Positions 42,489-61,874 of a DNA stretch of 64,000 nt are shown piece by piece (the stretch's first letter is position 1; every line of letters begins with the position of its first letter). The notes under the pieces are model-generated. The model was not told where the DNA came from. It did no database searches and saw only the letters and a list, made by a program, of their open reading frames with translations. Both the position numbers and the translations under genes were made by a program. This DNA is from a virus (taxonomy: Duplodnaviria; Heunggongvirae; Uroviricota; Caudoviricetes): IMG/VR virus record IMGVR_UViG_3300042885_000900. One strand, written 5' to 3'.

Positions 42489-43235
42489 TTATTGTATTTC
42501 ATTTAAGGATAATGATTTATCAATGTACTCATTTTGAAAATTAAACAATTTTTCTAGGTATCCATTTCTTCTCAATACCTTGAAAACTAAATTTTCATTT
42601 GATAGTTCCCCACCTTTTTCTAGTCCTGAAGTTCTATACTTTTTTAACTTATCTTTATATCTATCTATCAATTTTTTTGCGTCGTCCAATGACTCATCTT
42701 TAGCGTTTTCGATAACATCATCTATGGTTTTCATCCATTCTTCCGATTTTATTTTAACTGATTGGGTATCAATTTCCACATTTTCTTTTTTTGGTTCGCT
42801 AACCCATTCATCAAATAATACAGAATATTCTCCACTACTAAAATGTTTTTCAACATCATCCTGAACATACAATTCAACATCATATCCATATATGGTGATA
42901 TTATGTTTATCGTTATATAAAGTTTTTTTTAATCTAAATAATTCTTCGTATAATGGTAATTCTTTTTCCGAAAATTGTTTAAAATCCACAATTATATGTA
43001 AATCCACATCGGAATATTTTGACCAATTAAAATTTGCCAATGAACCGGTCATTACCACATCGGAGACAATTATATCAACACCCAAAAAATCAATAAACTC
43101 ATAAGCAATTTCTAAAAGACGCTCCCTAACTTTAGGGTTTATCGTTTCTGTTTTATTTTCTTTTGAGTTCCAAAATTTAGGGTTTAATTTGTCCTGTAGT
43201 TTAAAACTTGATAATATACTTTTTAAATTACTCAT
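42489..43235 (-). CDS. Pol-beta superfamily nucleotidyltransferase
   Basis: TGSLANFNWSKYSDVDLH ... VELYV (GS-x-DxD motif). Confidence 0.8.
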   Translation of the reverse strand: MSNLKSILSSFKLQDKLNPKFWNSKENKTETINPKVRERLLEIAYEFIDFLGVDIIVSDVVMTGSLANFNWSKYSDVDLHIIVDFKQFSEKELPLYEELFRLKKTLYNDKHNITIYGYDVELYVQDDVEKHFSSGEYSVLFDEWVSEPKKENVEIDTQSVKIKSEEWMKTIDDVIENAKDESLDDAKKLIDRYKDKLKKYRTSGLEKGGELSNENLVFKVLRRNGYLEKLFNFQNEYIDKSLSLNEIQ

Positions 43236-43918: not shown

Positions 43919-45970
43919 ATGATAGAATCTATGGATGGTAACGAAGGAAGAGGTAAAAACACAAGTATTACCGAATCAGCAACACCAGTGTTGGACAATT
44001 TTAGTCGAGATTTAATAAAATTGGCTGAAGAAGGGAAATTAGACCCCGTTATTGGTAGAGAAAGTGAAATTACGAGAATCGCCCAAATTCTTTCTCGTAG
44101 AAAGAAAAATAACCCAATTATTATTGGAGAACCTGGTTGTGGTAAAACCGCCATCGTTGAGGGTCTGGCAATTAAAATCTACAATGGGGATTGTCCAAGA
44201 AATTTAATGGATAAAAGAATTGTATCGTTAGATATGATATCAATCGTTGCTGGAACAAAGTATCGTGGTCAATTTGAAGAACGAATGAAAATAATTATTG
44301 AAGAATTACAAAACGCACCAAATATCATCGTATTCATTGATGAGATTCATACCATCGTTGGTGCGGGAAATTCATCCGGGTCAATGGATGCGTCAAACAT
44401 CTTTAAACCAGCTCTTGCTCGTGGAGAAATCCAATGTGTTGGAGCAACAACATTAGATGAATATAGAAAAAACTTTGAAAAAGATGGAGCGTTAGAAAGA
44501 CGTTTTCAAAAAGTTGTTGTTGATTCACCAACCAAAGAAGAGACATTACTTATCTTGGAACAATCAAAAGAAAAATATGAATCTTACCACAAGGTTACCT
44601 ATTCCAATGAGATTTTAAATCTATGTGTTGATTTGGCGGAGAGATATATCACCGATAGAGAATTTCCGGACAAAGCGTTTGACATCCTTGATGAGGTTGG
44701 TGCAAGAAGTCAGGTGGAAATTAAGATGCCAGACTCAATAGAAAAGTTGAAACTCCAAGCGTCCGATATTAAACAACAAAAAATGGATGTTGTTAAACGA
44801 CAAGATTATGAGGAAGCTGCAAATCTTCGTGATAAAGAAAAGAGAGTGTTAAATAAACTTGAGTCTGAAAAGAAAAAGTTTGAAGAGGACCTTCTTACTA
44901 ATAAGAAAGAAATCACCATTGATTTGGTTTATGAGGTTGTATCCAACATCACCAAAATTCCAATCACCAAATTAAACTCTGATGAGACTAAATTATTATC
45001 CGAAATGGAAGGTAATTTATGTGATAAGGTTATTGGACAATCTGAAGCTGTTTCAAAAATTGCCAAGTCAATCAGAAGAAATAGAATCGGGATTAAAGAC
45101 CCAAACAAACCAATTGGTTCATTCATCTTTTTAGGGTCAACCGGTGTTGGTAAAACATATTTAGCAAAACAACTCGCCAAACAAATGTTCGGTAGTGAGG
45201 ATAATATGATTCGTGTGGATATGTCAGAATACCAAGAAAAACATACCATATCAAGATTAATCGGAGCACCTAGCGGATATGTTGGGTATGAAGATGGGGG
45301 ACAACTAACCGAACAGGTTAAAAATAAACCATATTCTGTTATTCTATTTGATGAGGTTGAGAAAGCTCATAAAGATATTTTCTCCACACTTCTTCAAGTA
45401 TTGGATGAAGGACACCTAACCGATAGTTTAGGGAAAAAAATCAATTTCAAAAATTGTGTGATTATTATGACCTCAAATGTCGGAGCAAAAAAATTACAAG
45501 ATTTTGGTTCAGGTGTTGGTTTTAAAACTGGGTCAAGTACCTATGTTGAGGAAGAATATCGTAGAGATGTTTTGAAAAAGGAATTAAAGAAATTCTTTAC
45601 TCCGGAATTCTTAAATCGTGTAGACGAGATTGTAATCTTTAATTCTTTAGTGAAAGAAGATGTTAAAAAAATTGTGAAATTAGAATTGGATATTCTAACT
45701 AAAAGATTAGTTGGAATGAAATACAACATCACTTTTGATGGTAGTGTTTTAGATTTAATATCTGATGTTGGATTTGATGAGACCTACGGAGCAAGACCGA
45801 TTAAACGAGCTATCCAAGACAAACTTGAGGATTTTGTATCAGAGGAGATTATAAAAGGAAATGTGGTTGAAAACACCCCATACACAATTATCTCTGTGGA
45901 TAAAGAAATTAAATTTCAAGAGGTTGTTGAAGTTGTGAAAAAGACAAGAAAGAAAAAGGGGGATGTATAA
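43919..45970 (+). CDS. clpC: ClpC/ClpA-type AAA+ chaperone lacking the N-terminal Clp-repeat domain
   Basis: LDPVIGR, GEPGCGKT, FIDEIH, UVR-like QDYEEAANLRD, GSTGVGKT, GVGF (ClpP-docking loop), YGARPI. Confidence 0.9.
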   Translation: MIESMDGNEGRGKNTSITESATPVLDNFSRDLIKLAEEGKLDPVIGRESEITRIAQILSRRKKNNPIIIGEPGCGKTAIVEGLAIKIYNGDCPRNLMDKRIVSLDMISIVAGTKYRGQFEERMKIIIEELQNAPNIIVFIDEIHTIVGAGNSSGSMDASNIFKPALARGEIQCVGATTLDEYRKNFEKDGALERRFQKVVVDSPTKEETLLILEQSKEKYESYHKVTYSNEILNLCVDLAERYITDREFPDKAFDILDEVGARSQVEIKMPDSIEKLKLQASDIKQQKMDVVKRQDYEEAANLRDKEKRVLNKLESEKKKFEEDLLTNKKEITIDLVYEVVSNITKIPITKLNSDETKLLSEMEGNLCDKVIGQSEAVSKIAKSIRRNRIGIKDPNKPIGSFIFLGSTGVGKTYLAKQLAKQMFGSEDNMIRVDMSEYQEKHTISRLIGAPSGYVGYEDGGQLTEQVKNKPYSVILFDEVEKAHKDIFSTLLQVLDEGHLTDSLGKKINFKNCVIIMTSNVGAKKLQDFGSGVGFKTGSSTYVEEEYRRDVLKKELKKFFTPEFLNRVDEIVIFNSLVKEDVKKIVKLELDILTKRLVGMKYNITFDGSVLDLISDVGFDETYGARPIKRAIQDKLEDFVSEEIIKGNVVENTPYTIISVDKEIKFQEVVEVVKKTRKKKGDV

Positions 45971-46887: not shown

Positions 46888-48249
46888 TTAATTTATTCTA
46901 ACAAAACCCTCAAATAATTCGGGTGAAACTAAAAAGTTATTAAATTCTTCTTCGGTATAACTTCTACGAGCAACACCAGTTTTAGTGAAAACATCCATGT
47001 GTATTCTATTTGTTTCCGGGTCAATTTCTCTAAGAAAAAATTCTCTACCATATGAAGTTTTACTTCTAGTATTAATTGGGTATTTAGAGACAACTCTATC
47101 GTAGATATTTGAATATTCTAAAATATCCACATACTTATCAGATTCTTCTAATTCCTCAAGTATTTCATCTAATTCTTCACCTATTACGCGATTAAGTCGT
47201 TCTTCGTCAAAATCATTACATTGTATTTCATAACGATATTCATCCCATCCACCAGTGTTAAATGTGTGTCCGATATCTGTTAAAACACCATTGATATTTT
47301 TGGTGGGGTCTTGACTAATCTTAAACATTGACAATAAAAGTCCAACAGTGGTATAATAAGTTTCAAAACAATCTATGTTGATTAACCCATAATTTTGGAA
47401 AATTTCACAAAGTTCATCTTTAATTTCTTTTTTAGCCTTATCGTGACGACACCCATTTTCAAGGTCCACATATTCTTCTAACATACTTTCAACTTTACCT
47501 CCGAACATATCCATTAATTTTTTAGCAGCCTTTTCTTTGGTTTCCTCGCCATCTAACGAAATTAAATCAGGTGAAATATATTTTAAAATTTGTTTTAATT
47601 TACCCTTATTTTCATCTGAAAACCAACCGAAAAAATACCCCCCTTCCCAATCATCGGCGGCTACATTATAATCAACATAATCATATGTGTCGCCGTAATA
47701 TGAAAATAAACTATTAACATAATAAACATCATCTTCCTCAACATCAAATAATTTAACATAATCTTCTATATTGTCAAATCGTAATTTGATTGTGCTTTTA
47801 CCTGGATTTTTTTCGTTGTAATTAAATTTATAAACTAAATCGTCAGCACGTTCCATTTCATTAGATGACACCGGTTCACCATTCTTAATCTTAACCAATA
47901 ATTCATAAATTGGACTATAACCAATTATGGGTTCAAGTTCCGATTTAACTTCATTAGGTAACTCATAAAATAATTCTTTCCTATCAATAAGTCTATATCT
48001 CATAGCCTCACTGCCCAAATAAAGTATTTCATTATCGGGACCTTTATGAATAACATATATTTGGATAGGTTCTTTATCTTTATCAATAATAAAGTAAGTA
48101 TTTCCATCCCGAAATTCATCCCATTTAGATTTTATCGAAGGAGGAGCGTAATATATAAAAGAATCGTAATCCATTGGTTCAACAATTAACCAATCGTCAT
48201 TGTCAAATATTGTTTTAAATTCCCCGTGAGAGTCGTTTTTATCGGGCAT
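46888..48249 (-). CDS. hypothetical protein
   Basis: 453-aa acidic ORF. Confidence 0.7.
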   Translation of the reverse strand: MPDKNDSHGEFKTIFDNDDWLIVEPMDYDSFIYYAPPSIKSKWDEFRDGNTYFIIDKDKEPIQIYVIHKGPDNEILYLGSEAMRYRLIDRKELFYELPNEVKSELEPIIGYSPIYELLVKIKNGEPVSSNEMERADDLVYKFNYNEKNPGKSTIKLRFDNIEDYVKLFDVEEDDVYYVNSLFSYYGDTYDYVDYNVAADDWEGGYFFGWFSDENKGKLKQILKYISPDLISLDGEETKEKAAKKLMDMFGGKVESMLEEYVDLENGCRHDKAKKEIKDELCEIFQNYGLINIDCFETYYTTVGLLLSMFKISQDPTKNINGVLTDIGHTFNTGGWDEYRYEIQCNDFDEERLNRVIGEELDEILEELEESDKYVDILEYSNIYDRVVSKYPINTRSKTSYGREFFLREIDPETNRIHMDVFTKTGVARRSYTEEEFNNFLVSPELFEGFVRIN

Positions 48250-48281
48250 AGATATTTATTTTAATAATAAATATATTTTTA

Positions 48282-48312
48282 TTTGGAATTATCTAAAAAT
48301 GTATTATCTTTG
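48282..48312 (+). promoter_or_regulatory. Bacteroidota sigma-A-type promoter for tmRNA
   Basis: TTTG (48282-85), 19 nt spacer, TATCTTTG (48305-12). Confidence 0.75.
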
Positions 48313-48326
48313 TATCAGAATAATAA

Positions 48327-48737
48327 GGGGATGACCGGTATTGATTGGTATTATTAATTATTCGGGGCACGTAGTGAGATGTTCTCTATCACTTAAATCT
48401 ATGGGTAACAAAATTCTAAATGGCAACATTTTAAACAAAATGGCTCTAGTAGGTCTTGTACGTCAAGATGAGCTTGTGAACGTAGCGTAAGCAAACACAC
48501 ATTAGGGTCGGTGGACAGATACCCAGTAACAGGAGTCCAATAAGGTGTAATACCACCCGAAGATGTATTAGGAGTCTCGTTCAGGGAGCTACTTCAACAC
48601 AAGTGAACCCGACACAGTTATTGGTAACGATGTTAAAATAGGAACCAAATATTTGTCAGTTGAGAATTAATTGAATAAACGTGTAGTCCTTAATTTTTAA
48701 GGTAAACAAGAAAGGGGTTCGATTCCCCTCATCTCCA
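48327..48737 (+). ncRNA. ssrA: tmRNA
   Basis: 5' GGGGATG pairs with 3' CATCTCC-A giving a G3:U wobble; T-arm AGGGG TTCGATT CCCCT; internal tag ORF 48422-48490; smpB nearby; CCA not encoded. Confidence 0.92.
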
Positions 48738-48761
48738 CTGGTGAGTCCCATCACCTCCACA

Positions 48762-48833
48762 CAAAAAAGAGACCTAAATGGTCTCTTTTTTTATTGATAA
48801 TCACCAATAAAAAAACCACCCGAAGGTGGTTTG
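48762..48833. terminator. two terminators between tmRNA and the convergent gene
   Basis: aaaaaagagacc-taaat-ggtctctttttt and aaaccacc-cgaa-ggtggttt. Confidence 0.75.
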
Positions 48834-48856
48834 TTATCAGTTCAAATGTTTATTTT

Positions 48857-49201
48857 TTAATCTTTTAATACTTGTTTATCCCCAACCGGAGATGTAAATT
48901 TATTTGTTAATTTATCTAATCTTGAATCAAAAATTCTATATGTGTCGTTGATTGTCTTATTGATATACTGATTTATTTCAGTATGTAATCTATTAACCCT
49001 ATCAACCTCACCATCTATACGACGATTAAGAGTGTCTCCTTCTCTATTTATCTCATTAAAGATATGTCCTTGGACTTGTTCTAATTGCTTACATTTATTT
49101 TTTAATCTGTTAATCTGAATGCACATTATAACCATAACCACAACTCCCAGTACCCCGAGAACCAAACCTATACCCATAATGAACGATGTTAAATCTACCA
49201 T
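48857..49201 (-). CDS. membrane-anchored coiled-coil protein
   Basis: N-terminal hydrophobic helix. Confidence 0.65.
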   Translation of the reverse strand: MVDLTSFIMGIGLVLGVLGVVVMVIMCIQINRLKNKCKQLEQVQGHIFNEINREGDTLNRRIDGEVDRVNRLHTEINQYINKTINDTYRIFDSRLDKLTNKFTSPVGDKQVLKD

Positions 49202-49262
49202 AATTTCTTTTTTTTATTTGTTTATTATTGAACTGATGATTAAATATAATAAAAAAAAGGGA

Positions 49263-49700
49263 CTATTTCAAGTCCCTTTTCATATCTCTCTCTATGTCCC
49301 TCTCTTTAATTGAGAATCTTTTATCGTGTATTTTCTTCCCTTTGGCAAGAGCAATTTCCATTTTAATTAATCCGGTGTCGTTTATGAAGACGCGATAAGG
49401 AACGATTGTGGTACCGTTGATTAACTCATTCTCCAACTTAATAAGTTCTTTTCGTTTGGCTAATAGTTTTCTATCCTTTACGGTCTCGTGGAACGACCCA
49501 AACCCATAATCGGAGATGTTCATCCCCTTTATAAATAACTCCCCGTTATTAAAATAACAATACCCTTCAGAGATGGATACCTTCCCCTGACGAATGGACT
49601 TTACCTCTGAACCAACTAGTTTGATTCCAACAATTAGTGTCTGTAGGAATGAATACTCAAACTTGGCTTTCTTATTGACTATGTTTATTGATTTTTTCAT
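49263..49700 (-). CDS. smpB: SsrA-binding protein SmpB
   Basis: NKKAKFEY, GIKLVGSEVKSIR, RKLL..RKE, GKK.HDKR; ATG 49700 directly follows a TATCTTTG promoter. Confidence 0.95.
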   Translation of the reverse strand: MKKSINIVNKKAKFEYSFLQTLIVGIKLVGSEVKSIRQGKVSISEGYCYFNNGELFIKGMNISDYGFGSFHETVKDRKLLAKRKELIKLENELINGTTIVPYRVFINDTGLIKMEIALAKGKKIHDKRFSIKERDIERDMKRDLK

Positions 49701-49732
49701 AGGACAAAGATAATATAAAAATTGATATAAAC

Positions 49733-49767
49733 AAAAAAAGGTGATACAAATTAATGTACCACCTTCT
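49733..49767 (-). terminator. terminator closing the large ncRNA
   Basis: minus strand AAGGTGGTACA-TTAATT-TGTATCACCTTTTTTT. Confidence 0.7.
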
Positions 49768-49769
49768 TG

Positions 49770-50646
49770 GCTTAATACGATGAGAATACTCGTCTTATTG
49801 AGAATCTTCGGAAGGATTATTGTTTCCCTTCTTTTCCACATTCTTTTGGAATGTAATCCTCAGTGATAATTGGTTAGACCAATCACTCCTTGAGTCGCAA
49901 ACTACTCTCTTATTACTACACTCTCTTTAATCTTGCGAACTAATTAATCCTTGCGGGATTAGAGGTTTTTGGTAAGAATACACATCAACTTGCGGTTTTT
50001 GTGTGCTACGGACATCCCGTAACTAAGTAATCACCTATCATTTACGACTATCAGACACTTTTGCTTTTTTCTGTTTAGTTTTTCACCATATTGAAAATAG
50101 TAATTGTGTTGTGGATGTGTCGAAGAAGGGGTCTGATATAAGCTTTGTTATCTTTTGAACAACAAAATACTAACCTCCTCCGTGTAATGTCCCCATTACG
50201 AAATTTCAAGTGTAGTTCATATTAACATCTTGGTAGATGTTTGATAGGGATAAAATCGACACCACTCGTTCTTTATCTTACCTTTCGGTTTTAACTCAAC
50301 TCTAATTTTGGAACCCGCAATTACACATTTGGAAATATGTTTCTTACTTGATTCCTATGGGTTATTTTTATTGGTGTTCCCACCTCAACCGGACAATCCA
50401 CATTGCCAAGTTAGTATTCCATTTCCCTACGAAGTTATCCTCGGTACTACAGGACTACTAATATCCCACTTGCTTACTCGAGTTCGGTTTCCCAAACCAC
50501 AAAATCACTAACACAAATGATTTCATTTTATCCCCGTTTCCGGGATTATTTAAAGATGATAAGCCACCTATTATCTTTGATACAACACCGAAGTGTTATA
50601 ATGGATAATCTAAAATTTCTAAGAACGTCTTTAAGGTTTCCCTTAA
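49770..50646 (-). ncRNA. large ornate structured RNA (GOLLD-like candidate)
   Basis: ~0.87 kb with no credible ORF, own promoter and terminator, many GNRA/UUCG hairpins on the minus strand, adjacent to tRNA-like genes. Confidence 0.7.
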
Positions 50647-50654
50647 TTGTTTTA

Positions 50655-50684
50655 CAAAGGTAAGTGATTTTTTTCATTTGTCAA
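50655..50684 (-). promoter_or_regulatory. host-type promoter of the large ncRNA
   Basis: minus strand TTGACA ... TACCTTTG. Confidence 0.7.
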
Positions 50685-50711
50685 GCACTTTATAAAACTT
50701 TTTTTTTTCAG

Positions 50712-50802
50712 TGGTATCAACGGGACTCGAACCTGTGACACAGGGTTTTTCAAAACCCTTGCTCTACCAAGGGAAATAAATCTCCCACTGAGCTATAATA
50801 CC
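50712..50802 (-). tRNA. aberrant tRNA (Phe-like) with D-loop hairpin insertion and 8-nt anticodon loop
   Basis: GGTATTA/TGATACC acceptor, TAGCTCAGT..TGGTAGAGC D-arm, AGGGT-TTTGAAAA-ACCCT, GGTTCGAGTCC. Confidence 0.7.
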
Positions 50803-50810
50803 ATATAAAA

Positions 50811-50895
50811 TAATGTGGGTGTATGCTCTACCATCTGAGCTACGGATTTGAAACCGGAGGGATTTGAAACCTCGACACAACACCCACACCATTAC
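50811..50895 (-). ncRNA. circularly permuted tRNA-like element
   Basis: Order on minus strand: anticodon-stem 3' strand, variable GTGTC, T-arm, closed short acceptor, TAGCTCAGATGGTAGAGCA D-arm, anticodon-stem 5' strand. Confidence 0.65.
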
Positions 50896-50967
50896 TTCAA
50901 TGAACTTATTTTCTTCTACAAAGATAATACATTTATTTTAATCTGTCAAATATTTTTTGAAATTTTT

Positions 50968-51177
50968 TTAATTCATATTATCCAAGAACATTTCAATAAT
51001 CTCATCTTCCTCTTCATCTGTCCCTTCGGCTCCGTTAAGCCATTCTATGGTATCTACAGTGTAATCGTCCCAATTGTCCCAGAATGCGTGAATTGTAAAT
51101 CCTCTTCCATCCTCTGTTTGACCATCATAATCATAATTTGCTGAAGTTAAAATTTCACTCGAATAATTTATTTCCAT
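50968..51177 (-). CDS. small acidic hypothetical protein
   Basis: MEINYSSEIL...; the longer called start lies inside a tRNA-like gene. Confidence 0.55.
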   Translation of the reverse strand: MEINYSSEILTSANYDYDGQTEDGRGFTIHAFWDNWDDYTVDTIEWLNGAEGTDEEEDEIIEMFLDNMN

Positions 51178-51197
51178 TTTTACTTTTTTAATTTTTG

Positions 51198-51330
51198 TGT
51201 GTCGTACAGGATTCGAACCTATAACCATGCGTAATCTTCTACTTCAACTCATTGTACTTTTGAGTCCGTCACAGCTTGTTAGTATAAGTAGCTTTTCTTA
51301 TACTGTGTCTACCAATTCCACCAACGACAC
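51198..51330 (-). ncRNA. tRNA-like RNA (133 nt; Leu-type D-arm, extended anticodon and variable regions)
   Basis: GTGTCGT/ACGACAC acceptor, GGTGGAATTGGTAGACAC, AGTATAAG/CTTATACT 8-bp stem, ATAGG TTCGAAT CCTGT. Confidence 0.65.
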
Positions 51331-51339
51331 ATATTTTTG

Positions 51340-51432
51340 TAGTCAGGAGAGGAATCGAACCTCTCTACAGGGAGCTACCCGTCATCCATGACCTTCCATC
51401 GGACTCGAACCGACCTTGTATCCAACCTGACT
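51340..51432 (-). ncRNA. tRNA-like RNA with two T-loop hairpins and no D-arm
   Basis: AGTCAGG/CCTGACT acceptor, AGAGG TTCGATT CCTCT, internal TCGG TTCGAGT CCGA. Confidence 0.6.
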
Positions 51433-51584
51433 ATTTTTCGCTAATGTTAAAAACTGAGTCAATCCTCCAAAAAAACACTAACTTGGTACTTACCTATCTT
51501 GGCTCCCCCATCCATTTTAAATATATATTCACCTGAAACTTCAGCGGGTTGTTGATTGACCACTCCCACCTACTCAAGTAGTTT

Positions 51585-51839
51585 TTACACACTCATCATC
51601 CAACCCATCCGGTTTTGAGATTGATACTCACTATAAGTACATTTTCTCATTGAGGAATAGTCGGGTCTCAACTTAACATGAGTCGGATATTTCTTCTCGT
51701 GTTCTTTACTCTCTCTCACCACCTTAGCGTACGCTTCTCTTTTACTTGGAGCCCACACGTCATTAAATCCACCACCTATCCAATTAAACAAATAAAGGTA
51801 TTCACCGTTAACACTTCTATACAATTTCTCTTTAGCCAT
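51585..51839 (-). CDS. hypothetical protein
   Basis: MAKEKLYRS...; host-type promoter at ~51863-51870. Confidence 0.6.
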   Translation of the reverse strand: MAKEKLYRSVNGEYLYLFNWIGGGFNDVWAPSKREAYAKVVRESKEHEKKYPTHVKLRPDYSSMRKCTYSEYQSQNRMGWMMSV

Positions 51840-52015
51840 AATGATTAGTTTTAAATCCGATACAAAGATAAGCATTAAATCCACACTTCCAAACTTTATT
51901 TCATTTTTTTTAAAAAATTTTTTTACGATAACGATTCCGTAAGTTTATTTACTATTTTTCTTGACATGTCGGACATATTTATCTATAATTTAACAGAATT
52001 AAAAAACAAACTATT

Positions 52016-52192
52016 ATGAAAAAGTTATTATTGGCGATTGTTATCGCAGGGTCTTTATCTCTAACTTCTTGTTGGAAAGGTACAAAAAATGAAGAATCAA
52101 CAACAGAAGTTGCAACCGATACCACACAAGTGGATTCAGTACAGGTTGATTCAGTGGAAGTGGATACTATAAAAGTAGATACGGTTAAGTAA
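52016..52192 (+). CDS. small lipoprotein (58 aa; not in ORF track)
   Basis: MKKLLLAIVIAGSLSLTS-C lipobox, followed by VDS/VDT repeats. Confidence 0.75.
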   Translation: MKKLLLAIVIAGSLSLTSCWKGTKNEESTTEVATDTTQVDSVQVDSVEVDTIKVDTVK

Positions 52193-52196
52193 TCAG

Positions 52197-52222
52197 AAAC
52201 CCCTCTTAACGGAGGGGTTTTT
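52197..52222. terminator. intrinsic terminator
   Basis: aaacccctc-ttaacg-gaggggttttt. Confidence 0.75.
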
Positions 52223-52782
52223 TATTTTAAAAGTTGTTTAATTCTATTAATATCTTCATTAAGTTCATCGTCTTTTTTCTTTGGTTTGTCGGATAACGCT
52301 TTTTTAATAAAAGATATTGGACTTAAAAGTATGTCAGTAAAAATGTCTGACCCACCGATTCTAGGCTCATTTGATTTTACAATAGGTTCTTTGGTTTCAG
52401 ATTTTTTAACATCTTTTTTCTCATCTTTTTTAAACTGATGACCACTTAAAAAATCATTAACATTTTGTTTTGATTTTTTTTTATTTAGAATTGAGAATGA
52501 TATTTCTTTATCCGAAAAATATCCAATAGTGTGTCCTTGTTTCACTGTACTACCAATTCCAACAATAACTCTACCTATTTCACAAAAATCTGAATAAAAG
52601 GTTTCACCATTAACATTATGCTCAATAGTTAGATTTCCGTCACAACGATTAATAGATGGTACAACTATACCATCATAAGGACTAACTAACCTATCGTTAT
52701 CATATGATGAAAGACCGACAGTTTTTGATAACATTCCTTGGTTTAAGTTACCATTAGGTGAAGGTGAGATGAAATGATTCAT
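52222..52782 (-). CDS. M23-peptidase-fold protein, probably inactive
   Basis: VSPYDGIV, LTIEH, V..G..VKQG..IG; Zn ligands not evident. Confidence 0.5.
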   Translation of the reverse strand: MNHFISPSPNGNLNQGMLSKTVGLSSYDNDRLVSPYDGIVVPSINRCDGNLTIEHNVNGETFYSDFCEIGRVIVGIGSTVKQGHTIGYFSDKEISFSILNKKKSKQNVNDFLSGHQFKKDEKKDVKKSETKEPIVKSNEPRIGGSDIFTDILLSPISFIKKALSDKPKKKDDELNEDINRIKQLLK

Positions 52783-54082: not shown

Positions 54083-55117
54083 CTACAACTTTTTAAACTC
54101 CGGTCTGATTAAGTTCCATATGATTTCAGAATAATCTTTTTTATCGAACATCCTAAATAATATCCCTGATAAATGTTTATTTTGTTGTGACACCCACTCA
54201 GCGTATTCTTTTCTATCTGTGATAGGTTCTTTGTCGTTATATTTACCATACATTTTACCATCAAATTTTTTACCAGCATCTTCAGATATTTGGAAATAAA
54301 AATACCTTAATTCTTTTACATAATTTTTAATTTTGGTGTAAAATTCATCCGGAACATCTTTTAATAATTCCATCACATCTTCACCATTTTTTAGATATTC
54401 CCAAACTCCGGTTGTTGATACATTGGTCATAATTTTATGAAGACGCAAATACTCAACACCTTTAACTTTAACTCTATCCCCATTTGAAAACTTCACCACA
54501 AACCCTTCTTGGTTGTTTTTAACCATTTCTTTAAGTTCTTTGAAGTCCTTAATACCATCGTATTTTTTAACCACATCAAACCCGTATTCTCTCCACATTT
54601 CTACATCATATTCTTTTCCGTTTTTATCAAAGGTTCCCAATAGGACTAATCCTTCGTAATCACCGTAATCTACTACCACGCGATTCTGCGGGAATAAAAT
54701 TTCAAAACAGAAAGTCAGATGTCTGAACATAATATCTGTATTATACTTTTTAAGGAGTTCAATACCTTTAATTGATTGGTCGGAAGTAAATGACCCACGA
54801 GTGGCTACCACCCATTGACCCTCATACCAAAAAACCAACAAAAGTGAACCATCCATTTTTTCCCACACCTCAAAGTTTTCAGTTGGTTCAAATTTCCCTT
54901 CTTCAATATTGAAGAATTTGTTAAAACCTCTTGCAACAATATTACCCTTATCATTTGTCACCAACCCCCGACAACTTAATGTTATTTCGTCCCAATAATT
55001 TTCATATTGTGTTGTTTGACTATAATTCCATATAATCAAAGGAAGAGTTGGGTGATTTTGACTTAATAACCACCCATCATCTCTATATTTAACTAATGTA
55101 TCTAAATTAATCTCCAT
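54083..55117 (-). CDS. RNA ligase (T4 Rnl1-like)
   Basis: CRGLV, KFFN, EKMDGSL, TRGSF, FEI, EGFVV, KVK..EY. Confidence 0.88.
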   Translation of the reverse strand: MEINLDTLVKYRDDGWLLSQNHPTLPLIIWNYSQTTQYENYWDEITLSCRGLVTNDKGNIVARGFNKFFNIEEGKFEPTENFEVWEKMDGSLLLVFWYEGQWVVATRGSFTSDQSIKGIELLKKYNTDIMFRHLTFCFEILFPQNRVVVDYGDYEGLVLLGTFDKNGKEYDVEMWREYGFDVVKKYDGIKDFKELKEMVKNNQEGFVVKFSNGDRVKVKGVEYLRLHKIMTNVSTTGVWEYLKNGEDVMELLKDVPDEFYTKIKNYVKELRYFYFQISEDAGKKFDGKMYGKYNDKEPITDRKEYAEWVSQQNKHLSGILFRMFDKKDYSEIIWNLIRPEFKKL

Positions 55118-55895
55118 AATAATACTCCCATTTATATCCACCACAATGTTTCATTGACCCATTTAATACTTTACTAACATTTTTATATGTTGTTGTGGTT
55201 CTAATTTCCCATACCGATGAATAGATTTTTATAATTTCATTGTCCTTGTTTTTTTGAACAACTTGTTTTTTTGTTTTACTATCCCCAATTTTTTTCTTTG
55301 TAATTTCGGATAATATTTTTCCTTTGTGAAATTCTGAAATTTCTTTTTTTCTTTCTTCAGAATGTTTTTTTCCAAACATTGGATTTTTATCCCCAATTTT
55401 AGTTACGCTTAATTTATTTTTAGTTTCATCACTTCGTTTCCTACCTAAATGAGTTTTTTTACAATTTTCAGACATTTTTTTTCTTTCATCATCAGTGATT
55501 ACTCTATTTTTTGCGGATTCTCTAACTTTACTTAACCATTGATTATAATCTTCCTCAGAACGCCAAACTCTTTTTTGTCCCGGCATAGAACCTGAGTCAC
55601 CACCTTCAGAAATGTTTAATAAATTACAACCTTTTTCTTGGTAAGAAGAAATATATTTTTTTTCAATTTCCTTCCAATCGTTTTCTTCAACTACGTCAAT
55701 AAGTTTAATAATTGGTTTTAAGTCCTCTTTCAATAGAGATTTAATCCAAGTATTTTTATGGGTTGTTTTATTATCAGAATTTTTAGCTTTAGATATATGA
55801 TTATTTAATCTAACACTAAGTTTTTTAACAGTTTGTCCTACATACCTAATTTCATTAGTTTTTGGGTCAATTAATACGTATATACTATGTTCCAT
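55107..55895 (-). CDS. GIY-YIG homing endonuclease with NUMOD3-like repeats
   Basis: IYVL.DP....IRYVGQT, RL..H, NPMFGKKHSEE. Confidence 0.85.
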   Translation of the reverse strand: MEHSIYVLIDPKTNEIRYVGQTVKKLSVRLNNHISKAKNSDNKTTHKNTWIKSLLKEDLKPIIKLIDVVEENDWKEIEKKYISSYQEKGCNLLNISEGGDSGSMPGQKRVWRSEEDYNQWLSKVRESAKNRVITDDERKKMSENCKKTHLGRKRSDETKNKLSVTKIGDKNPMFGKKHSEERKKEISEFHKGKILSEITKKKIGDSKTKKQVVQKNKDNEIIKIYSSVWEIRTTTTYKNVSKVLNGSMKHCGGYKWEYYYGD

Positions 55896-55965
55896 AATAA
55901 CCTTTTATTATAAATATCTCGTAATTATGTTTTCGTATTGAATTTACTCAGTATAATTTTTTAAT

Positions 55966-56331
55966 TTATAATGTGGAACAAAATATTAATGTTCCGATTA
56001 ATTGTATGTAATGTAATACTTGGTCAAATCCAACCACCACAAATCCGTTGTGGAAATCTTGTTTATCCCAATATGGTTTTCCAATTCTACTAGTTACAAA
56101 ATCTGTAATCCAATGACAAATGAATGTAATGACGGAGAATATTAAAGCAATTCTAAAATCACTCAAATAAAACCAAGATGCCAACAACCACATTATGGAA
56201 TAAACCCCAACGTGGTATGTTAACCATTTAAGACTTGTACTTTTTCCGGTCGCTTGTTCGTGTGTCTGTAATCCAAAATCAGCTAAGAAGTGAATTAACA
56301 ATACAAATATTAATGTTGTAAATGATATCAT
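55966..56331 (-). CDS. DUF3307-like membrane protein
   Basis: HFLADF.LQ, H..D, DQVLH. Confidence 0.75.
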   Translation of the reverse strand: MISFTTLIFVLLIHFLADFGLQTHEQATGKSTSLKWLTYHVGVYSIMWLLASWFYLSDFRIALIFSVITFICHWITDFVTSRIGKPYWDKQDFHNGFVVVGFDQVLHYIQLIGTLIFCSTL

Positions 56332-56332
56332 A

Positions 56333-56656
56333 TTACCAAGTGTATCTAATGTATTCTATTTCAAATTTATCCCAAACTCGGTAAACAGCCTCTACAAATG
56401 GAATGGACCACTCATCACCTTCTTCGGTAATATATTCAATCACGTAATCCATTCTTTCACCACAATCATAACGAACTATTGTATCGTTTATAACATCTGA
56501 CTGAAAATACCTCAACCAAATATGCCATAGGTCTTTATATTCACCACCAACTAACTTGTGATAATCTCTGAAGTATTGTTCTTCAATACCCATCTCTTTA
56601 CAGATTTCTTTTCGAATATCAAACCAATCATAAAATTCTATCGTGTGTTTTTCCAT
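56333..56656 (-). CDS. hypothetical protein
   Basis: 107-aa ORF. Confidence 0.65.
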   Translation of the reverse strand: MEKHTIEFYDWFDIRKEICKEMGIEEQYFRDYHKLVGGEYKDLWHIWLRYFQSDVINDTIVRYDCGERMDYVIEYITEEGDEWSIPFVEAVYRVWDKFEIEYIRYTW

Positions 56657-57750
56657 TACTTCTCGTTTAATAAGAATTTGTTACTAATAACTTTGAATGA
56701 GATTGTTCTATCGTAACTTCTAATTACAACACCTTCTCTATCAAAGTTTGGATTCAAATCTGATTTACCATCAGCCATCTTTAATAACTCATCAATCGTG
56801 TCCGGTAAATGGAAATGTGTGTCTAACACCGGTACGGTCTCTATACCTAATTCAGTCACCAGTGATTGAAATAAAGATAATGAATCATACTCTTGTAAAT
56901 CAATATGAAACAGGTTGAAGAATCTTACGGTTTGTCCTTTGATTTTATATGGGTTCCCTTGGATACCCTCACCAATAAGTTCTCCTTGAATAGAGATGTT
57001 CGCGTTCTCACCATATTCTCTCATTTTGTTTTCCAAATCCAATTCACGAGCAACTTTCCAAAATGTGTTACCTTCAGTTTCCAATAACTCCAAATTACGA
57101 GAACAAACACCAAACTCTCCGTTATTGTAGTAGAATGTTGAGGAAGAACCATCTAATTTTTCTGTTACATAGTAAGTATGTTTCTTCATTTCTTCATACT
57201 CGGATGCCAAGTTCTGAATTCTCTCTTCATCAGTTTTACGAATGAAACTTGGGAACATACCTTTAACCTTTCCGGCTAGTTCTGCTGGAATTGGTGGTTC
57301 GTACTTAACGATTCCCAATTTTTCAGTCACATCAGTTCCCGGAACCAATTCAATCATATCTGATGGTGAAATAACGGTTCTATTTGGTTCCAAAGCAACA
57401 TTCTCATTTAATAACGTTTCAGAAACTCTATAACCATAACCTTCAAATAAAACAGATAAAGGTAAAATTAATCCTTGGGATACCTGCCCGCGAAGTTTCA
57501 CGGTCCTCAAACGGAATCCTTCTTCATCACCCATTTTCTTATATGAACTCTTACGTAAGAATTCAAATTCTTCTCTGATTGGTAAGAATGAATCAATCTC
57601 ACAATATACAACCAAATCATTTATTCTGTGACCAACTTCTTTTGCCACAACCACTTTCCAACCATCCACGATTGCCAATTCAATCATATCGGCCCCGGGA
57701 ATTTCTTGAATATCACTAATTCTTCTAATACTAGCTAACTTTCTTTCCAT
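56656..57750 (-). CDS. RNA ligase, DRB0094 family
   Basis: RKLASIRRI, GADMIE, KLRGQVSQGL, KTDEERIQN, TEKLDGSS, QGELIG.GIQGN.Y, EGVV, FKVISN. Confidence 0.9.
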   Translation of the reverse strand: MERKLASIRRISDIQEIPGADMIELAIVDGWKVVVAKEVGHRINDLVVYCEIDSFLPIREEFEFLRKSSYKKMGDEEGFRLRTVKLRGQVSQGLILPLSVLFEGYGYRVSETLLNENVALEPNRTVISPSDMIELVPGTDVTEKLGIVKYEPPIPAELAGKVKGMFPSFIRKTDEERIQNLASEYEEMKKHTYYVTEKLDGSSSTFYYNNGEFGVCSRNLELLETEGNTFWKVARELDLENKMREYGENANISIQGELIGEGIQGNPYKIKGQTVRFFNLFHIDLQEYDSLSLFQSLVTELGIETVPVLDTHFHLPDTIDELLKMADGKSDLNPNFDREGVVIRSYDRTISFKVISNKFLLNEK

Positions 57751-58133
57751 TATATCAATTCAAATTTTGTTAATGTATCTCTTCTTTCTTCTTTGTTAAT
57801 ACCCAATAAATAATTCTTAACATTACTCACAATTGTCTTACTATAAATCTGAGCAATAGCCCTGAATGTTATAGTTTTTTTTACAATATGGTCGGGATTA
57901 CTTTTTAACCTATCGTTTTTATAATCACTTATCGCTTTAAGGATGTTGTTTTTATAACCACTAGACCCATCAACTAAATTAATAGTGTGTTCGGTAAATT
58001 GGCCATTTACAACAATTCTCAATAAATGAACTTTCTTAGATTTACAAAAGGTTATGACGTATTCGTCATAACCCATATGTGTAAATCCGGTATCGGTTTT
58101 TTGGTATTTAGCTACCTTGAAGATGTTCTCCAT
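57750..58133 (-). CDS. hypothetical protein
   Basis: 127-aa ORF in operon. Confidence 0.6.
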   Translation of the reverse strand: MENIFKVAKYQKTDTGFTHMGYDEYVITFCKSKKVHLLRIVVNGQFTEHTINLVDGSSGYKNNILKAISDYKNDRLKSNPDHIVKKTITFRAIAQIYSKTIVSNVKNYLLGINKEERRDTLTKFELI

Positions 58134-58504
58134 TATACTCTTACCATTTTTTTAGGGTCTTTACCCAATTTTTTCAAAATCTCATTTCTCTCGTATGTGT
58201 CTTGGTCAATGATTGATTTACTCAATTTCATCAGTTCCATTTTAGACATTTCACCACACTCGTTATACACTTCTGATTGTAGTTTTGAGTAATCACTCAA
58301 AGCTCTTTCAGACTCACCCATTAATCCACGGAAGTTGGCTGATTGCATTTTCAACGAACCTAATGAAGAACCAATCCATTTAGCCAATGAAGTTTCATCT
58401 TTTAAATACAAACCGTAAGTTCCGTATTTTGTGTAATAGAACGCTAAGATGTTATCTTCTTTTGTCCATTCGTGTAATCCTAAAGTTTTGCTACGTGTTG
58501 CCAT
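58133..58504 (-). CDS. hypothetical protein
   Basis: Likely start MATRSK; host-type promoter at ~58553-58560. Confidence 0.6.
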   Translation of the reverse strand: MATRSKTLGLHEWTKEDNILAFYYTKYGTYGLYLKDETSLAKWIGSSLGSLKMQSANFRGLMGESERALSDYSKLQSEVYNECGEMSKMELMKLSKSIIDQDTYERNEILKKLGKDPKKMVRV

Positions 58505-58587
58505 AATTTTTAAATTTGTAAATGTTAATGTATTTGTTACTATTTGATGGTACAAAGATACTACTTTATTTTAATCCACCAAATTTT

Positions 58588-58980
58588 TTACAAAGAAATT
58601 TCAAATCTTTTTCGCATTAGTTCTAACTTATCTTCCGGAACCCCGTGTTCATTGACTCCACCGTGTCTGTTTTCTACAATTATAGAGAATACTTTATATC
58701 CGTATTTTGATGCCAAGTCATAATATGGTTGCATTTCCCACTCTTGTGTGAATGTATTTGATACCACAACTTTATGTTCGTATTTCATTAAAAAATCAAC
58801 TTCTTCTTGACACCAAGAGTGAGCATCTTTAATTTCAGATGGTTTGAAATTATAATTTCCATCTCTATCCACAAAAAACATATCAGCTTCTTTAATATAC
58901 CCTCTATTACCGGCAATAGATTTAGCCAATGTTGATTTACCACTTCCTGGTAACCCTCTTAATAAAAATAACTCTTTCAT
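58588..58980 (-). CDS. P-loop kinase (AAA_33 / polynucleotide-kinase-like)
   Basis: LRGLPGSGKST, EAD.FF, VVSNTF, HGVP. Confidence 0.85.
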   Translation of the reverse strand: MKELFLLRGLPGSGKSTLAKSIAGNRGYIKEADMFFVDRDGNYNFKPSEIKDAHSWCQEEVDFLMKYEHKVVVSNTFTQEWEMQPYYDLASKYGYKVFSIIVENRHGGVNEHGVPEDKLELMRKRFEISL

Positions 58981-58981
58981 A

Positions 58982-59263
58982 TTAATTTTTTAAATATTTT
59001 ACAATCTTCTCAATTCCGTCAGTATCATCCGGATTTATGATGAACTCATCAAATGCTCCGTACCTACATTGATACCCAAAAATATATTTTAAACCATAAC
59101 TAACTCTTTCCCAAAAAGGTCGTTTAGTTAAATGAGTATGGATATAAACCATTGGATATTTTACACCATCAATTTCATCTTCATCATATAAAACAACCAT
59201 TTGATGTTCCGTATTATGACAGGAACAAATGAATAAATCTTTTTGTGTTTGTTTAATTTCCAT
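58982..59263 (-). CDS. hypothetical protein
   Basis: 93-aa ORF with CSCH. Confidence 0.6.
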   Translation of the reverse strand: MEIKQTQKDLFICSCHNTEHQMVVLYDEDEIDGVKYPMVYIHTHLTKRPFWERVSYGLKYIFGYQCRYGAFDEFIINPDDTDGIEKIVKYLKN

Positions 59264-59264
59264 A

Positions 59265-59927
59265 TTATTTTCTTTTTCGACCTTCGTCGGTTATCATATC
59301 ATCTGTGTGATGGTCATCGTCCATATTTGATTTAATTTCTCTCAATTTTACAATCTTAATAACATTGTCTAATGAGTATGGTACAAAAAACAATGAACCA
59401 TCAATACCAACATCCATTCTACGACCCTTACCAAAGATTTTACCCGTTGGGAGATGTACATGTCCATGGAGGTGAATATGTCCTTTATTTAGTCCATCCC
59501 AAGAATCTATAGGGTAGTGCATTAAAACTAAAGTGTCAAATTTATACATCAATTTTGTGTAATGATTAACACTCGTAAACAATTCCTGACAATCACCTCT
59601 ATTATTTTCAATGTGATGGTCGTGATTACCTAATATAAGGTGAATCTCTTGACACACAATTCTATCTCTAAAAATTTTTACATTTTCAAAACCACCAAAA
59701 CTCCAATCACCCAAGTGAATCAAAACATCATCTTGACCAACAACACTATTAATACCGTGTACAATAGCGTCGTTCATCTCCCCAATATTACTAAAATCTC
59801 TTGTTTGGTGAATTGGAACACTTCCATCCGGAAGTCTCCATTCGGTTACACCACGACATATATTCTTATGCCCAAAGTGTGTGTCGGATATAATCCAAAC
59901 TTTTCTATCGTTATCTATCTTAATCAT
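59265..59927 (-). CDS. calcineurin-like metallophosphoesterase
   Basis: SDTHFGH, HLGD, LGNHD, HYP, HGHVH, DVGID. Confidence 0.9.
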   Translation of the reverse strand: MIKIDNDRKVWIISDTHFGHKNICRGVTEWRLPDGSVPIHQTRDFSNIGEMNDAIVHGINSVVGQDDVLIHLGDWSFGGFENVKIFRDRIVCQEIHLILGNHDHHIENNRGDCQELFTSVNHYTKLMYKFDTLVLMHYPIDSWDGLNKGHIHLHGHVHLPTGKIFGKGRRMDVGIDGSLFFVPYSLDNVIKIVKLREIKSNMDDDHHTDDMITDEGRKRK

Positions 59928-60417
59928 ACTGCAAATCTAATTCTTTTTTTCCAAACCAAAAAGGTTTTTCTCTGTTTTTCCAAGACGCTAAATTAATTTT
60001 AGCCCCCATATAATAATTTCTATAAGATTCCACAACAGAATCCACCTTAAACTCATCCGGCATCGCCATAGCCGGAGTAGTAAAATCAATGTCCGGGATG
60101 TTTGGTTTATTTATAATACACCAATTAATCACATCTATTGATTTATGTCTTTTACCATACCTGTGGGTATATTCCTTACCAAGTTCTAAACCTAATTCAC
60201 AAAGATACAAATAGTTTGATAAACTCTCACGAGTCCAAATAGCACAAGGGTGGTTCTTATGTGACAACTTGTACGGTACTTGGTGGGTAACTTGTTCGGT
60301 TACGTGATGAACCGAACATAATAACTGAGCCGTTTCAAGTATCATTTTGATACAGTGGGAATTATTATGATATTGAGCATTTAATTTAGGGTTTTCGTCT
60401 AAGAAAAAAATATTCAT
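59920..60417 (-). CDS. pyrimidine-dimer DNA glycosylase / endonuclease V-like
   Basis: MNIFFLD..P....H..KMILETAQLL, HKNHPC..W, EY..RYGK.H. Confidence 0.75.
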   Translation of the reverse strand: MNIFFLDENPKLNAQYHNNSHCIKMILETAQLLCSVHHVTEQVTHQVPYKLSHKNHPCAIWTRESLSNYLYLCELGLELGKEYTHRYGKRHKSIDVINWCIINKPNIPDIDFTTPAMAMPDEFKVDSVVESYRNYYMGAKINLASWKNREKPFWFGKKELDLQYD

Positions 60418-60454
60418 TTTTATTATTTTTAAATATTAAGGGACAAAGATATAA

Positions 60455-61318: not shown

Positions 61319-61403
61319 AATCTTTGTTTAATTATAAATATCACAAAATATTATAATATTTTATTTTTAACCAAATAATATTACCATAACCAATAATGTT
61401 TGG

Positions 61404-61874
61404 TTATTTAATAGGTATTCGAACCCTAACACAGGTCTCAGGTTGTTTTTCATTTTTTAAGAAATTGTTAACCCAACCACAAATATTGTGGGCTCCAACA
61501 GGATTTGCTGAATGAACATAAATTAACGGGAAAATAAATTTATCATTCTTTTTTTCGTTTTTAGTCATATTAATTCTTTCCGGAAATACATAATAGAATT
61601 GATTTACTAACCACTTAGCGGCATCATAACCAGTTTTCTCATTAATATTGTTATAGTCCAAAGTGTAGTTTGGAGAAACATTATTAAAATACTCTTTCAT
61701 TGCAGAATCACCTAAATCGTGGTCCAAAGATATAATATCAATATTCTCCAACCCAATCTTATTAACTTGTACAACAAATTCATCGTAATCTCTAACTACA
61801 ATCCAATCATCACCAGTAGGAGTTCTCACATCATCAAGATATATTCTACAAGGTGGTTTCATATTATTTTCCAT
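61404..61874 (-). CDS. receiver-like domain of the cyclic-phosphate-processing type
   Basis: YLDD.R, ISLDHDLG, TGYD, VHSANPVG. Confidence 0.7.
   Translation of the reverse strand: MENNMKPPCRIYLDDVRTPTGDDWIVVRDYDEFVVQVNKIGLENIDIISLDHDLGDSAMKEYFNNVSPNYTLDYNNINEKTGYDAAKWLVNQFYYVFPERINMTKNEKKNDKFIFPLIYVHSANPVGAHNICGWVNNFLKNEKQPETCVRVRIPIK

Follow-up and report, generated by a model that had tools for sequence, protein, structure and literature searches.

Two small RNAs of phage T4, RNAC and RNAD, reportedly lie in the tRNA cluster of that phage. Both are stable, and no function has been assigned to them (PMC9697503). GOLLD RNA is likewise associated with tRNAs: according to the passages of PMC6582537 that cite Weinberg 2009, GOLLD genes are found near tRNA genes, and a pseudo-tRNA lies inside the mycobacterial GOLLD. 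By cryo-EM, GOLLD forms a 14-mer cage, and linker tRNAs were proposed as the cargo of the cage (bioRxiv 10.1101/2024.12.08.627333). The tRNA-like modules of YrlA RNAs are modified like tRNA, and in one species they are cleaved and CCA-tailed (PMC4201824). Here we describe a locus on a 64-kb stretch of viral DNA (IMG/VR record IMGVR_UViG_3300042885_000900, Caudoviricetes; 'the window' below), in which a GOLLD RNA, a tmRNA and smpB are accompanied by four tRNA-shaped genes, elements A to D.

As read from the sequence, all four elements have lost a decoding anticodon loop and kept their tRNA frames; conservation of the frames was found for A, B, D and for the AGTCAGG family described below. The features predicted to be retained are those by which tRNA-handling enzymes recognize their substrates: an acceptor stem of 7 bp followed by A73, the T arm, the elbow nucleotides U8, A14, A15 and U48, and the 3′ trailer of the real tRNAs of the phage. 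We regard the locus as a conserved non-coding RNA island of ~300-kb freshwater phages, whose hosts, judging by the type of the promoters, are Bacteroidota. Statements about whole genomes rest on four complete relatives (G002-G005, 308-322 kb); loci fetched from related phages are given L numbers.

The four tRNA-shaped genes

All four elements are encoded on the minus strand. In the order read from the sequence, D and C are followed by a small acidic open reading frame (ORF), a promoter, B and A. Downstream of A on the same strand come the box of the GOLLD promoter, a leader with the ~870-nt GOLLD RNA, smpB and a 114-aa ORF, and the tmRNA gene converges on them from the plus strand. All five exact matches to the T-loop motif GGTTCRANTCC present in the window fall inside the island, in the 2.7-kb stretch 48716-51411; by our estimate from base composition ~0.2 matches would be expected in the whole window, and the clustering is not due to chance. 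ARAGORN found no canonical tRNA in the rest of the window.

Element A (50711-50802, minus strand) is classed as a tRNA-Phe-derived RNA. It resembles phage tRNA-Phe in the acceptor stem, the D arm, the GUGYC variable loop, A73 and the GAA triplet. The Rfam tRNA model (RF00005) matches positions 50712-50802 with 46.7 bits, a score reached only with a 20-nt insertion in the D loop. The acceptor stem has 7 bp and is followed by A73, and in all variants but one a 6-bp hairpin with a UUUA or UUCG cap is inserted at D-loop position 17. The 'anticodon' arm, 5-7 bp long, closes UUUGAAAA and retains GAA. It consists of a 5-bp stem and an 8-nt loop, the outer two nucleotides of which covary as a pair (U-A, C-G, A-U, U-G); if this pair is counted, the arm has a 6-bp stem and a 6-nt loop. 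The centre of the loop is (U/C/G)GAA, with GAA invariant; A37 is present in every variant, and most variants have C or G instead of U33. In the orthologue in L025 the arm is a 7-bp stem with a GGAA tetraloop. When 18 variants were aligned over the whole cloverleaf, 92.9% of the cells were paired and 14 pairs had changed on both sides, a result matched by none of 500 shuffles.

In at least 25 loci of related phages the pair A and B stands, in synteny, upstream of GOLLD. A canonical tRNA-Phe is absent in G002-G004 and present in G005; because G005 has it in addition to A, A is not simply the tRNA-Phe of the phage. Quadruplet decoding by A was considered and is unlikely, as the base in fourth position is variable and the two outer nucleotides of the loop covary with each other.

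Element B (50803-50899, minus strand), which abuts A, is a circularly permuted tRNA mimic. Its 9-10 bp stem is followed by the variable loop, the T arm and a capped hairpin of 3-4 bp, which replaces the acceptor stem; then come UA, a canonical D arm, an A and the return strand of the long stem. Across relatives 96.7% of the cells in this fold were paired and six pairs had changed on both sides (0 of 500 shuffles matched). The permuted module was recognized by the Rfam YrlA model (RF02553) with 40.1 bits in the window and 34-42 bits in the B element of every relative, below the gathering score (GA) of 69. The Ro60-binding motif GNCGAAN(0-1)G, described for the 5′ strand of the YrlA stem (PMC4201824), was not found in B: CGAA is missing from the 5′ flank, which is GAAGUAAUG in the window and GAAA(A/G)AUAG in relatives. 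TROVE/Ro60 had no match in the four complete relatives and no significant tblastn match in the window. B was therefore not classed as a Y RNA. By its predicted fold B would work like the tRNA-like half of a Y RNA, yet it is not a Y RNA by the defining features.

A second permuted mimic was seen between A and the GOLLD promoter in L019 (4890-4975) and also in L005, L011, L014, L027 and L043. It is composed of a stem, a T arm (GTTGG/CCAAC), a long capped hairpin, a D arm and the closing strand of the stem. The window has lost it and carries an A-rich stretch in its place.

Element C (51198-51330, minus strand), delimited by reading of the strand, is a 133-nt gene with a tRNA-Leu-type frame: the acceptor stem is GTGTCGT/ACGACAC with A73, the D arm is of the Leu type and the T arm is that of the AGTCAGG family. 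The middle contains a 7-8 bp stem with the 8-nt loop AAAAGCUA, then ~55 more nucleotides. Element D (51340-51432, minus strand), located by ARAGORN and by reading of the strand, is a 'double T-loop' tRNA-like RNA. It has an AGTCAGG/CCTGACT acceptor stem, A73 and a T arm, with a second T-loop hairpin at the position of the D arm and two short hairpins after it. The tRNA-Pro call of ARAGORN for D was spurious and resulted from a forced fold. A 24-mer from the D core occurs in 48 viral contigs, and among 20 variants of D the column identity is 93%, with covariation in the T arm and the acceptor stem. The structure of D was drawn by hand, the RNAalifold consensus being poor (some alignment rows were truncated); its junction helix is weakly supported, with 85.5% of the cells paired and no pair changed on both sides.

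A loop suited to decoding is missing from these elements in different ways. B has no anticodon arm, C has a loop of 8 nt, and D has a 4-bp stem with a tetraloop; no loop made up of U33, a triplet and a purine at position 37 occurs in C or D. In the region 47500-52500 neither C nor D had an Rfam match at E ≤ 10, and the tRNA model did not match B, C or D.

Decoding tRNAs are encoded elsewhere in these phages: in the complete relatives a separate cluster, at a distance of 18-30 kb, comprises 18-23 canonical tRNAs with scores of 45-70 bits. The canonical tRNAs end in N73-CA(A/T) without CCA, and the N73-CA trailer is shared by the mimics, which suggests that maturation probably follows the same route in both.

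A preliminary description of the window had placed tmRNA, smpB, a giant structured RNA and four tRNA-shaped genes in an island at 48327-51432, and this was confirmed by Rfam, Pfam, ARAGORN and strand reading, the giant RNA being the ~870-nt GOLLD. The genes are clustered as described, but they are not contiguous, because two small ORFs interrupt them (48857-49201 and 50968-51177, both minus strand). That every tRNA-shaped gene is non-canonical holds as well: all four lack an anticodon loop of 7 nt. The T arms, described as intact, are present in all four, but that of A contains an A51·C63 mismatch and that of B has 4 bp only, with the 53-61 pair mismatched. CCA is indeed encoded by none of the four elements; as an argument its absence is worthless, because the canonical tRNAs of the relatives also lack it.

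The AGTCAGG family

Members of the AGTCAGG family share a tRNA-Leu-type frame, which begins with AGTCAGG-UG-GCGGAAU(U)GGUAGACGC and ends with ACAGGUUCGAAUCCUGU-CCUGACU-A, and differ in middles of ~20-150 nt. From 198 extracted copies 161 unique elements were obtained, and the 160 without N were used for clustering. They fell into 120 core clusters, with a nearly invariant frame and hypervariable middles. In its D arm (UGGCGGAAU(U)GGUAGACGC) the frame corresponds to bacterial tRNA-Leu. The nucleotides of the tertiary pairs U8-A14 and A15-U48 are retained (U8 in 153 of 160, A14 in 144, A15 in 139 and U48 in 134), as they are in C, and A73 is present in all. A Leu anticodon in a 7-nt loop together with a long variable arm was not found in the family; the middles are unrelated structured inserts. 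In short members a tetraloop hairpin replaces the anticodon arm, and long members have multi-hairpin inserts, some of them at D-loop position 17. Related cores differ by compensatory changes. Insertions of 30-60 nt at position 17, the site of the hairpin in A, were seen in L007 (2724-2868), L021 (3318-3461), a 169-nt member in L166 and others. Insertion thus recurs at a second site, in addition to the anticodon and variable region.

Judging from their sequences, C and D carry parts of this frame, D having the AGTCAGG acceptor stem only and not the Leu-type D arm. Two of the four elements are members of large phage families of tRNA-framed RNAs, which have apparently gone undescribed.

The 25-mer at the 3′ end of the frame occurs in more than 120 viral contigs among the matches listed and in just 16 contigs among ~185,000 prokaryotic genomes. 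The 16 contigs come from unrelated taxa and look like mis-binned phage DNA. Two other explanations of the family were rejected. The 25-mer is not an attP site or a copy of a host tRNA, since the 5′ half of the frame is also conserved and the prokaryotic contigs are few and taxonomically scattered. The inserts are not introns, being too short for group I introns and lacking flanking halves of an anticodon stem.

The exchange of middles can be followed at one syntenic position. The slot upstream of the acidic ORF, whose flanks exceed 90% identity, contains the D core in the window and in L003, a 103-nt core in L005 and a 77-nt core in L019, and all of them begin at the same AGTCAGG. Different cores in the same frame between such flanks imply that the middles are exchanged as cassettes. 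In other phages AGTCAGG-family elements sit among canonical tRNAs, and ARAGORN mislabels them as Pro, Thr, Tyr, Leu and other tRNAs.

One class of cores, 102-106 nt long and containing ...CACCYCC(CC)AAGGUUGAG..., was found in L007 (2453-2554), L016 (4606-4707), L010 (1275-1376), L014 (3284-3386), L103 and L220. It is conserved even where the D arms of the members differ, which suggests that the core is a functional module in its own right. When Rfam was run on the relatives, nothing was found for the 102-nt and the 114-145-nt AGTCAGG classes.

GOLLD, tmRNA-SmpB and neighbouring genes

The GOLLD RNA of the window (49777-50650, minus strand; 5′ end approximate) is ~870 nt long. It consists of a 3′ domain (49777-50182), which matches RF02032 with 320.6 bits (GA 150), and an ORF-poor 5′ domain, which extends with the leader up to ~50650. 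The 5′ part is conserved in a 634-kb phage, and blastn conservation in LR745206 reaches window position 50568. RF02032 was also matched in 11 of 12 related loci, and the synteny of GOLLD, smpB and tmRNA holds in the relatives scanned. As a promoter GOLLD has the -7 box TACCTTTG alone (50655-50662, minus strand, read from sequence); the same box with an identical leader is present in L019. The leader contains a GAAA-capped hairpin, then GTTCTTAGAAA at 50616-50626 (minus strand), a motif kept in relatives. The sequence GTTCTTA(A/G)AAA follows the GOLLD promoter and, in many relatives, the B promoter as well; it is clade-wide (for example L021, 4500-4510 and 5068-5078) and may be a leader or an antitermination-type signal.

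In the 634-kb and 642-kb phages (L001, 5684-5773 and 6907-6980; L002, 5244-5317) a canonical tRNA-Met abuts GOLLD. The same phages have GOLLD-adjacent tRNA-Glu-like genes whose arm shows the design of that of A, 6 bp closing a loop of 6 nt, here with UUC kept. One of these tRNA-Glu-like genes has a hairpin inserted in the D loop.

The phage tmRNA (48327-48740, plus strand) matches the RF00023 model over its full length with 73.7 bits, above the gathering score of 47. Its acceptor stem (GGGGATG/CATCTCC) contains G3·U70 and is tRNA-Ala-like, the T arm is canonical, and CCA is not encoded. The predicted tag is GNILNKMALVGLVRQDELVNVA, followed by the stop, and is homologous to the tags called by ARAGORN in relatives. 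Tags of tmRNAs are usually short, with an ALAA-type end. The tag of the window (48422-48490, plus strand) differs from these by its length of 22 residues and its NVA end; the similarly long tags of relatives end in VVA or TVA. The smpB gene (49263-49700, minus strand; 145 aa, Pfam SmpB E = 6.8e-46) is 520 nt from the tmRNA gene and forms a cognate pair with it. A search with SmpB gave 80 viral contigs, among them the complete genomes G002-G005, and the SmpB proteins of relatives are 57-97% identical. A ClpC/ClpB-like double-AAA ATPase is encoded 2.4 kb from tmRNA (43919-45970, plus strand).

Two small ORFs lie between the RNA genes. The 114-aa ORF between smpB and tmRNA (48857-49201, minus strand) has a hydrophobic N-terminal segment and a weak DUF4446 match; tblastn found homologues in 28 fetched loci. 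The acidic ORF of ~69 aa between C and the B promoter (50968-51177, minus strand; ORF list and tblastn) has no Pfam match. It carries a D/E run near the C-terminus, and its identity exceeds 90% in L003, L005 and L019.

Promoters were identified by pattern match. The bipartite motif TTTG-N19-21-TAnnTTTG, which we take to be typical of Bacteroidota, precedes tmRNA, smpB, B and an ORF upstream of D. The tmRNA promoter (TTTG ... TATCTTTG, 48282-48312, plus strand) ends 15 nt upstream of the gene; promoter-like motifs precede smpB (49705-49735, minus strand) and the B-A unit (50919-50950, minus strand), the latter being kept in relatives. The extended TATTATCTTTG box of the tmRNA promoter recurs before smpB and B. 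The bipartite motif was not found directly before C or D, and A, since it directly adjoins B, lacks a separate promoter. The preliminary statement that a TAnnTTTG promoter stands before every unit is thus correct for tmRNA, smpB and B and in part for GOLLD, which has the box only, but not for A, C and D.

An RNA healing-and-sealing cluster occupies 54083-61874 on the minus strand. It encodes an Rnl1-type RNA ligase (54083-55144), a second ligase with a PHA02142 OB domain (56656-57750), an AAA_33 kinase (58588-58980), a calcineurin-like phosphoesterase (59265-59927) and a cyclic-phosphate-processing receiver domain (61404-61874). Homing endonucleases of the GIY-YIG (55107-55895) and HNH (60455-61318) types, also on the minus strand, lie among these genes, and a gene for a 496-aa BspA-type leucine-rich-repeat protein (61944-63434, plus strand; Pfam LRR_5, 1.9e-48) adjoins the cluster. 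RNA-repair genes were found alongside mimic families in ~10 independent loci of other phages; this count has no background rate and was not used as evidence. Together with the ClpC-like ATPase, the repair genes fit a translation and RNA-repair neighbourhood, which is no proof of a link to the mimics. A CCA-adding-type nucleotidyltransferase head domain was detected in only two of the four complete relatives. In the window a 248-aa ORF (42489-43235, minus strand) has a weak NTP_transf_2 match.

Possible function and comparison with known systems

The interpretation that we favour, with moderate confidence, is that the elements are processed, stable and possibly chargeable tRNA mimics, which act on tRNA-binding factors. 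RNase P and 3′-end processing would cut the mimics out, the cut at the 5′ end of A also freeing B, and CCA would be added as it is to tRNAs. The products would accumulate as stable small RNAs and would act in trans, occupying or recruiting tRNA-binding proteins rather than reading codons. Candidate targets are aminoacyl-tRNA synthetases, processing and modification enzymes, tRNA-directed nucleases and ribosome-associated factors. A mimic without an anticodon loop would not be a substrate for anticodon nucleases specific for that loop.

The distribution of the retained parts is suggestive of synthetase recognition, since Leu-type frames lose the anticodon arm and Phe- and Glu-type frames keep the triplet. 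Leucyl-tRNA synthetase (LeuRS) recognizes A73 and A14 and can dispense with the anticodon arm, whereas phenylalanyl-tRNA synthetase (PheRS) reads G34, A35 and A36 (PMC9976931). By these published identity rules, LeuRS could charge the RNAs with a Leu-type frame, namely C and the AGTCAGG family, and the dispensability of the anticodon arm would explain why the middles are freely replaceable. The Phe-type A keeps GAA, on which PheRS depends.

Several points weigh against this interpretation. We infer processing, stability, charging and action in trans alike. Genes for a Leu-, Ile-, Val- or Met-type synthetase or a leucyl/phenylalanyl-tRNA transferase were not found in the relatives, so that no phage-encoded user of charged mimics is visible. 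For C, blastn against the fetched loci gave frame pieces only, and an exact scan of viral contigs gave nothing. With GAA and A37 retained, A may have kept some residual decoding. An invariant frame with variable middles could also reflect cassette recombination or mobility rather than recognition by proteins.

The elements might instead serve in cis, as RNase P or RNase Z signals that punctuate co-transcribed RNAs and mRNAs and have no function once released. An acceptor stem with a T arm is exactly what these enzymes need, and an RNase P cut at A would make the 3′ end of the abutting B. D and C, without promoters of their own, stand between an upstream promoter and ORF and the acidic ORF, and hypervariable middles fit an unconstrained released product. 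We nevertheless consider this explanation unlikely. The middles are structured, conserved within classes and subject to compensatory changes, the D core retaining its 93% identity among variants from diverse phages, and the D-arm and Levitt-pair nucleotides are conserved although cleavage does not require them. Downstream of A, moreover, GOLLD is provided with a leader and a separate -7 box, and B lacks a cleavable acceptor stem. It seems quite unlikely, too, that the mimics are partners or cargo of GOLLD, which bind to the 14-mer cage, lie within it or help to assemble it. Such a role would agree with the B-A-GOLLD order kept in at least 25 loci, with the mycobacterial pseudo-tRNA (PMC6582537) and the linker tRNAs proposed as cargo (10.1101/2024.12.08.627333), and with the finding that in this clade only mimics stand beside GOLLD, decoding tRNAs being elsewhere. 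However, elements of the D class and the AGTCAGG family are present on numerous phage contigs, with GOLLD in none of the 13 such loci scanned, and the more distant GOLLD-SmpB loci L033, L034 and L038 have neither A nor B.

It is still less probable that the elements are unusual working tRNAs; in that case A would be a tRNA-Phe whose 8-nt loop makes it nuclease-resistant or frameshifting, and B, C and D would be odd decoders. GAA and A37 in every A variant, the missing canonical tRNA-Phe of G002-G004 and the proposal that phage tRNAs alter their anticodon loops against anticodon nucleases (PMC10264068, PMC11555353) would favour it. Against it, U33 of A is mostly C or G, the outer loop nucleotides covary as a pair, L025 has a GGAA tetraloop and G005 has a canonical tRNA-Phe beside A; B has no acceptor end, and C and D lack a loop with U33, triplet and purine. 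Decay of tRNA pseudogenes left by the turnover of tRNA clusters is highly improbable, and for A, B and D it is largely refuted. Phage tRNA clusters do turn over fast, C is unique to this genome and L003 has non-tRNA sequence at the position of C; but the acceptor stems are perfect, every relative has the same non-canonical features, and even among phages with SmpB identities of only 57-97% the elements A, B and D show covariation and strong conservation.

This comparison also bears on the preliminary proposal that selection preserves the tRNA shape rather than decoding. Conservation and compensatory changes in relatives support it for the frame (acceptor stem, T arm and tertiary nucleotides of the D arm) as opposed to the decoding loop. 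Canonical tRNAs at this locus in relatives, with random decay of the present copies, had been named as the observation that would speak against it; the relatives carry the same non-canonical genes, with compensatory changes. The two roles suggested in the preliminary description, decoys against tRNA-cleaving defences and RNase P/Z signals for the processing of the giant RNA, are hypothetical. Beyond the island, we put forward only tentatively that natural 'tRNA-scaffolded' RNAs form a large class in phages, so far undescribed, in which a Leu, Phe or Glu frame would provide processing, stability and perhaps charging, and an exchangeable middle the activity. The cassettes would be swapped in an arms race, and with GOLLD, tmRNA-SmpB and RNA repair the locus would be a translation-takeover and counter-defence island. 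If this is true, the middles could trap tRNA-directed defence nucleases, synthetases or ribosome factors.

Phage tRNA genes are usually counted by tRNA finders and read as codon supplements or as nuclease-resistant replacements. As hundreds of phage contigs carry non-decoding tRNA-framed genes, which ARAGORN labels wrongly, such inventories are partly contaminated by another kind of RNA. A frame with swappable middles opens charging, processing, partners and effects on defence to direct experiment. GOLLD has a solved structure and no assigned function; that its fixed neighbours in one large phage clade are non-decoding mimics, not decoding tRNAs, narrows the meaning of its 'tRNA association' and provides concrete candidate partners.

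Some parts of the locus are of known kinds, namely tmRNA-SmpB, GOLLD near tRNAs and YrlA-like mimicry. In Rfam and in full-text searches we found nothing on clade-wide GOLLD-adjacent non-decoders, on the D class or on the tRNA-Leu-framed family; full-text searches gave no paper with the frame sequences and nothing specific on phage tRNA-like decoys. The tmRNA-SmpB pair resembles those of huge phages (PMC7162821), in which a phage tmRNA also has its own SmpB, and the nearest public phage records of the window are the 634-kb and 642-kb genomes, from uncultured phages, of the kind described in that study. As in known GOLLD loci, a GOLLD scoring above GA is found in a phage with tRNA-shaped flanks, the 14-mer cage being known for another member only. 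In contrast to those loci, here all GOLLD-adjacent tRNA-shaped genes are conserved non-decoders, the tRNAs that decode are clustered elsewhere, and smpB and tmRNA are linked to GOLLD. B is like YrlA (RF02553; PMC4201824) in the T arm, the capped acceptor-like hairpin, the D arm and the closing stem, but has neither the Ro60 motif nor the long Ro-binding stem. With the phage tRNAs thought to escape defence (PMC10264068; PMC11555353) the mimics share altered anticodon loops, and they adjoin Rnl1-type repair genes; those tRNAs, however, decode and differ by point changes, whereas here the anticodon arm is missing, has been replaced or is locked in a short loop.

Among classical precedents RNAC and RNAD of T4 come closest; they, too, are non-decoding small phage RNAs encoded with tRNAs. 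Compared with their description, the present RNAs have explicit tRNA frames and form families in which the middles can be exchanged, and their genes stand away from the cluster of decoding tRNAs. The engineered 'tRNA scaffold' of Ponchon and Dardel is said to serve recombinant RNA expression by yielding a processed, stable chimera. There, too, an arbitrary structured RNA stands in for the anticodon arm, while the acceptor stem, the D arm and the T arm are retained; that scaffold is a laboratory design, whereas the RNAs described here would be a natural and diversified phage gene family.

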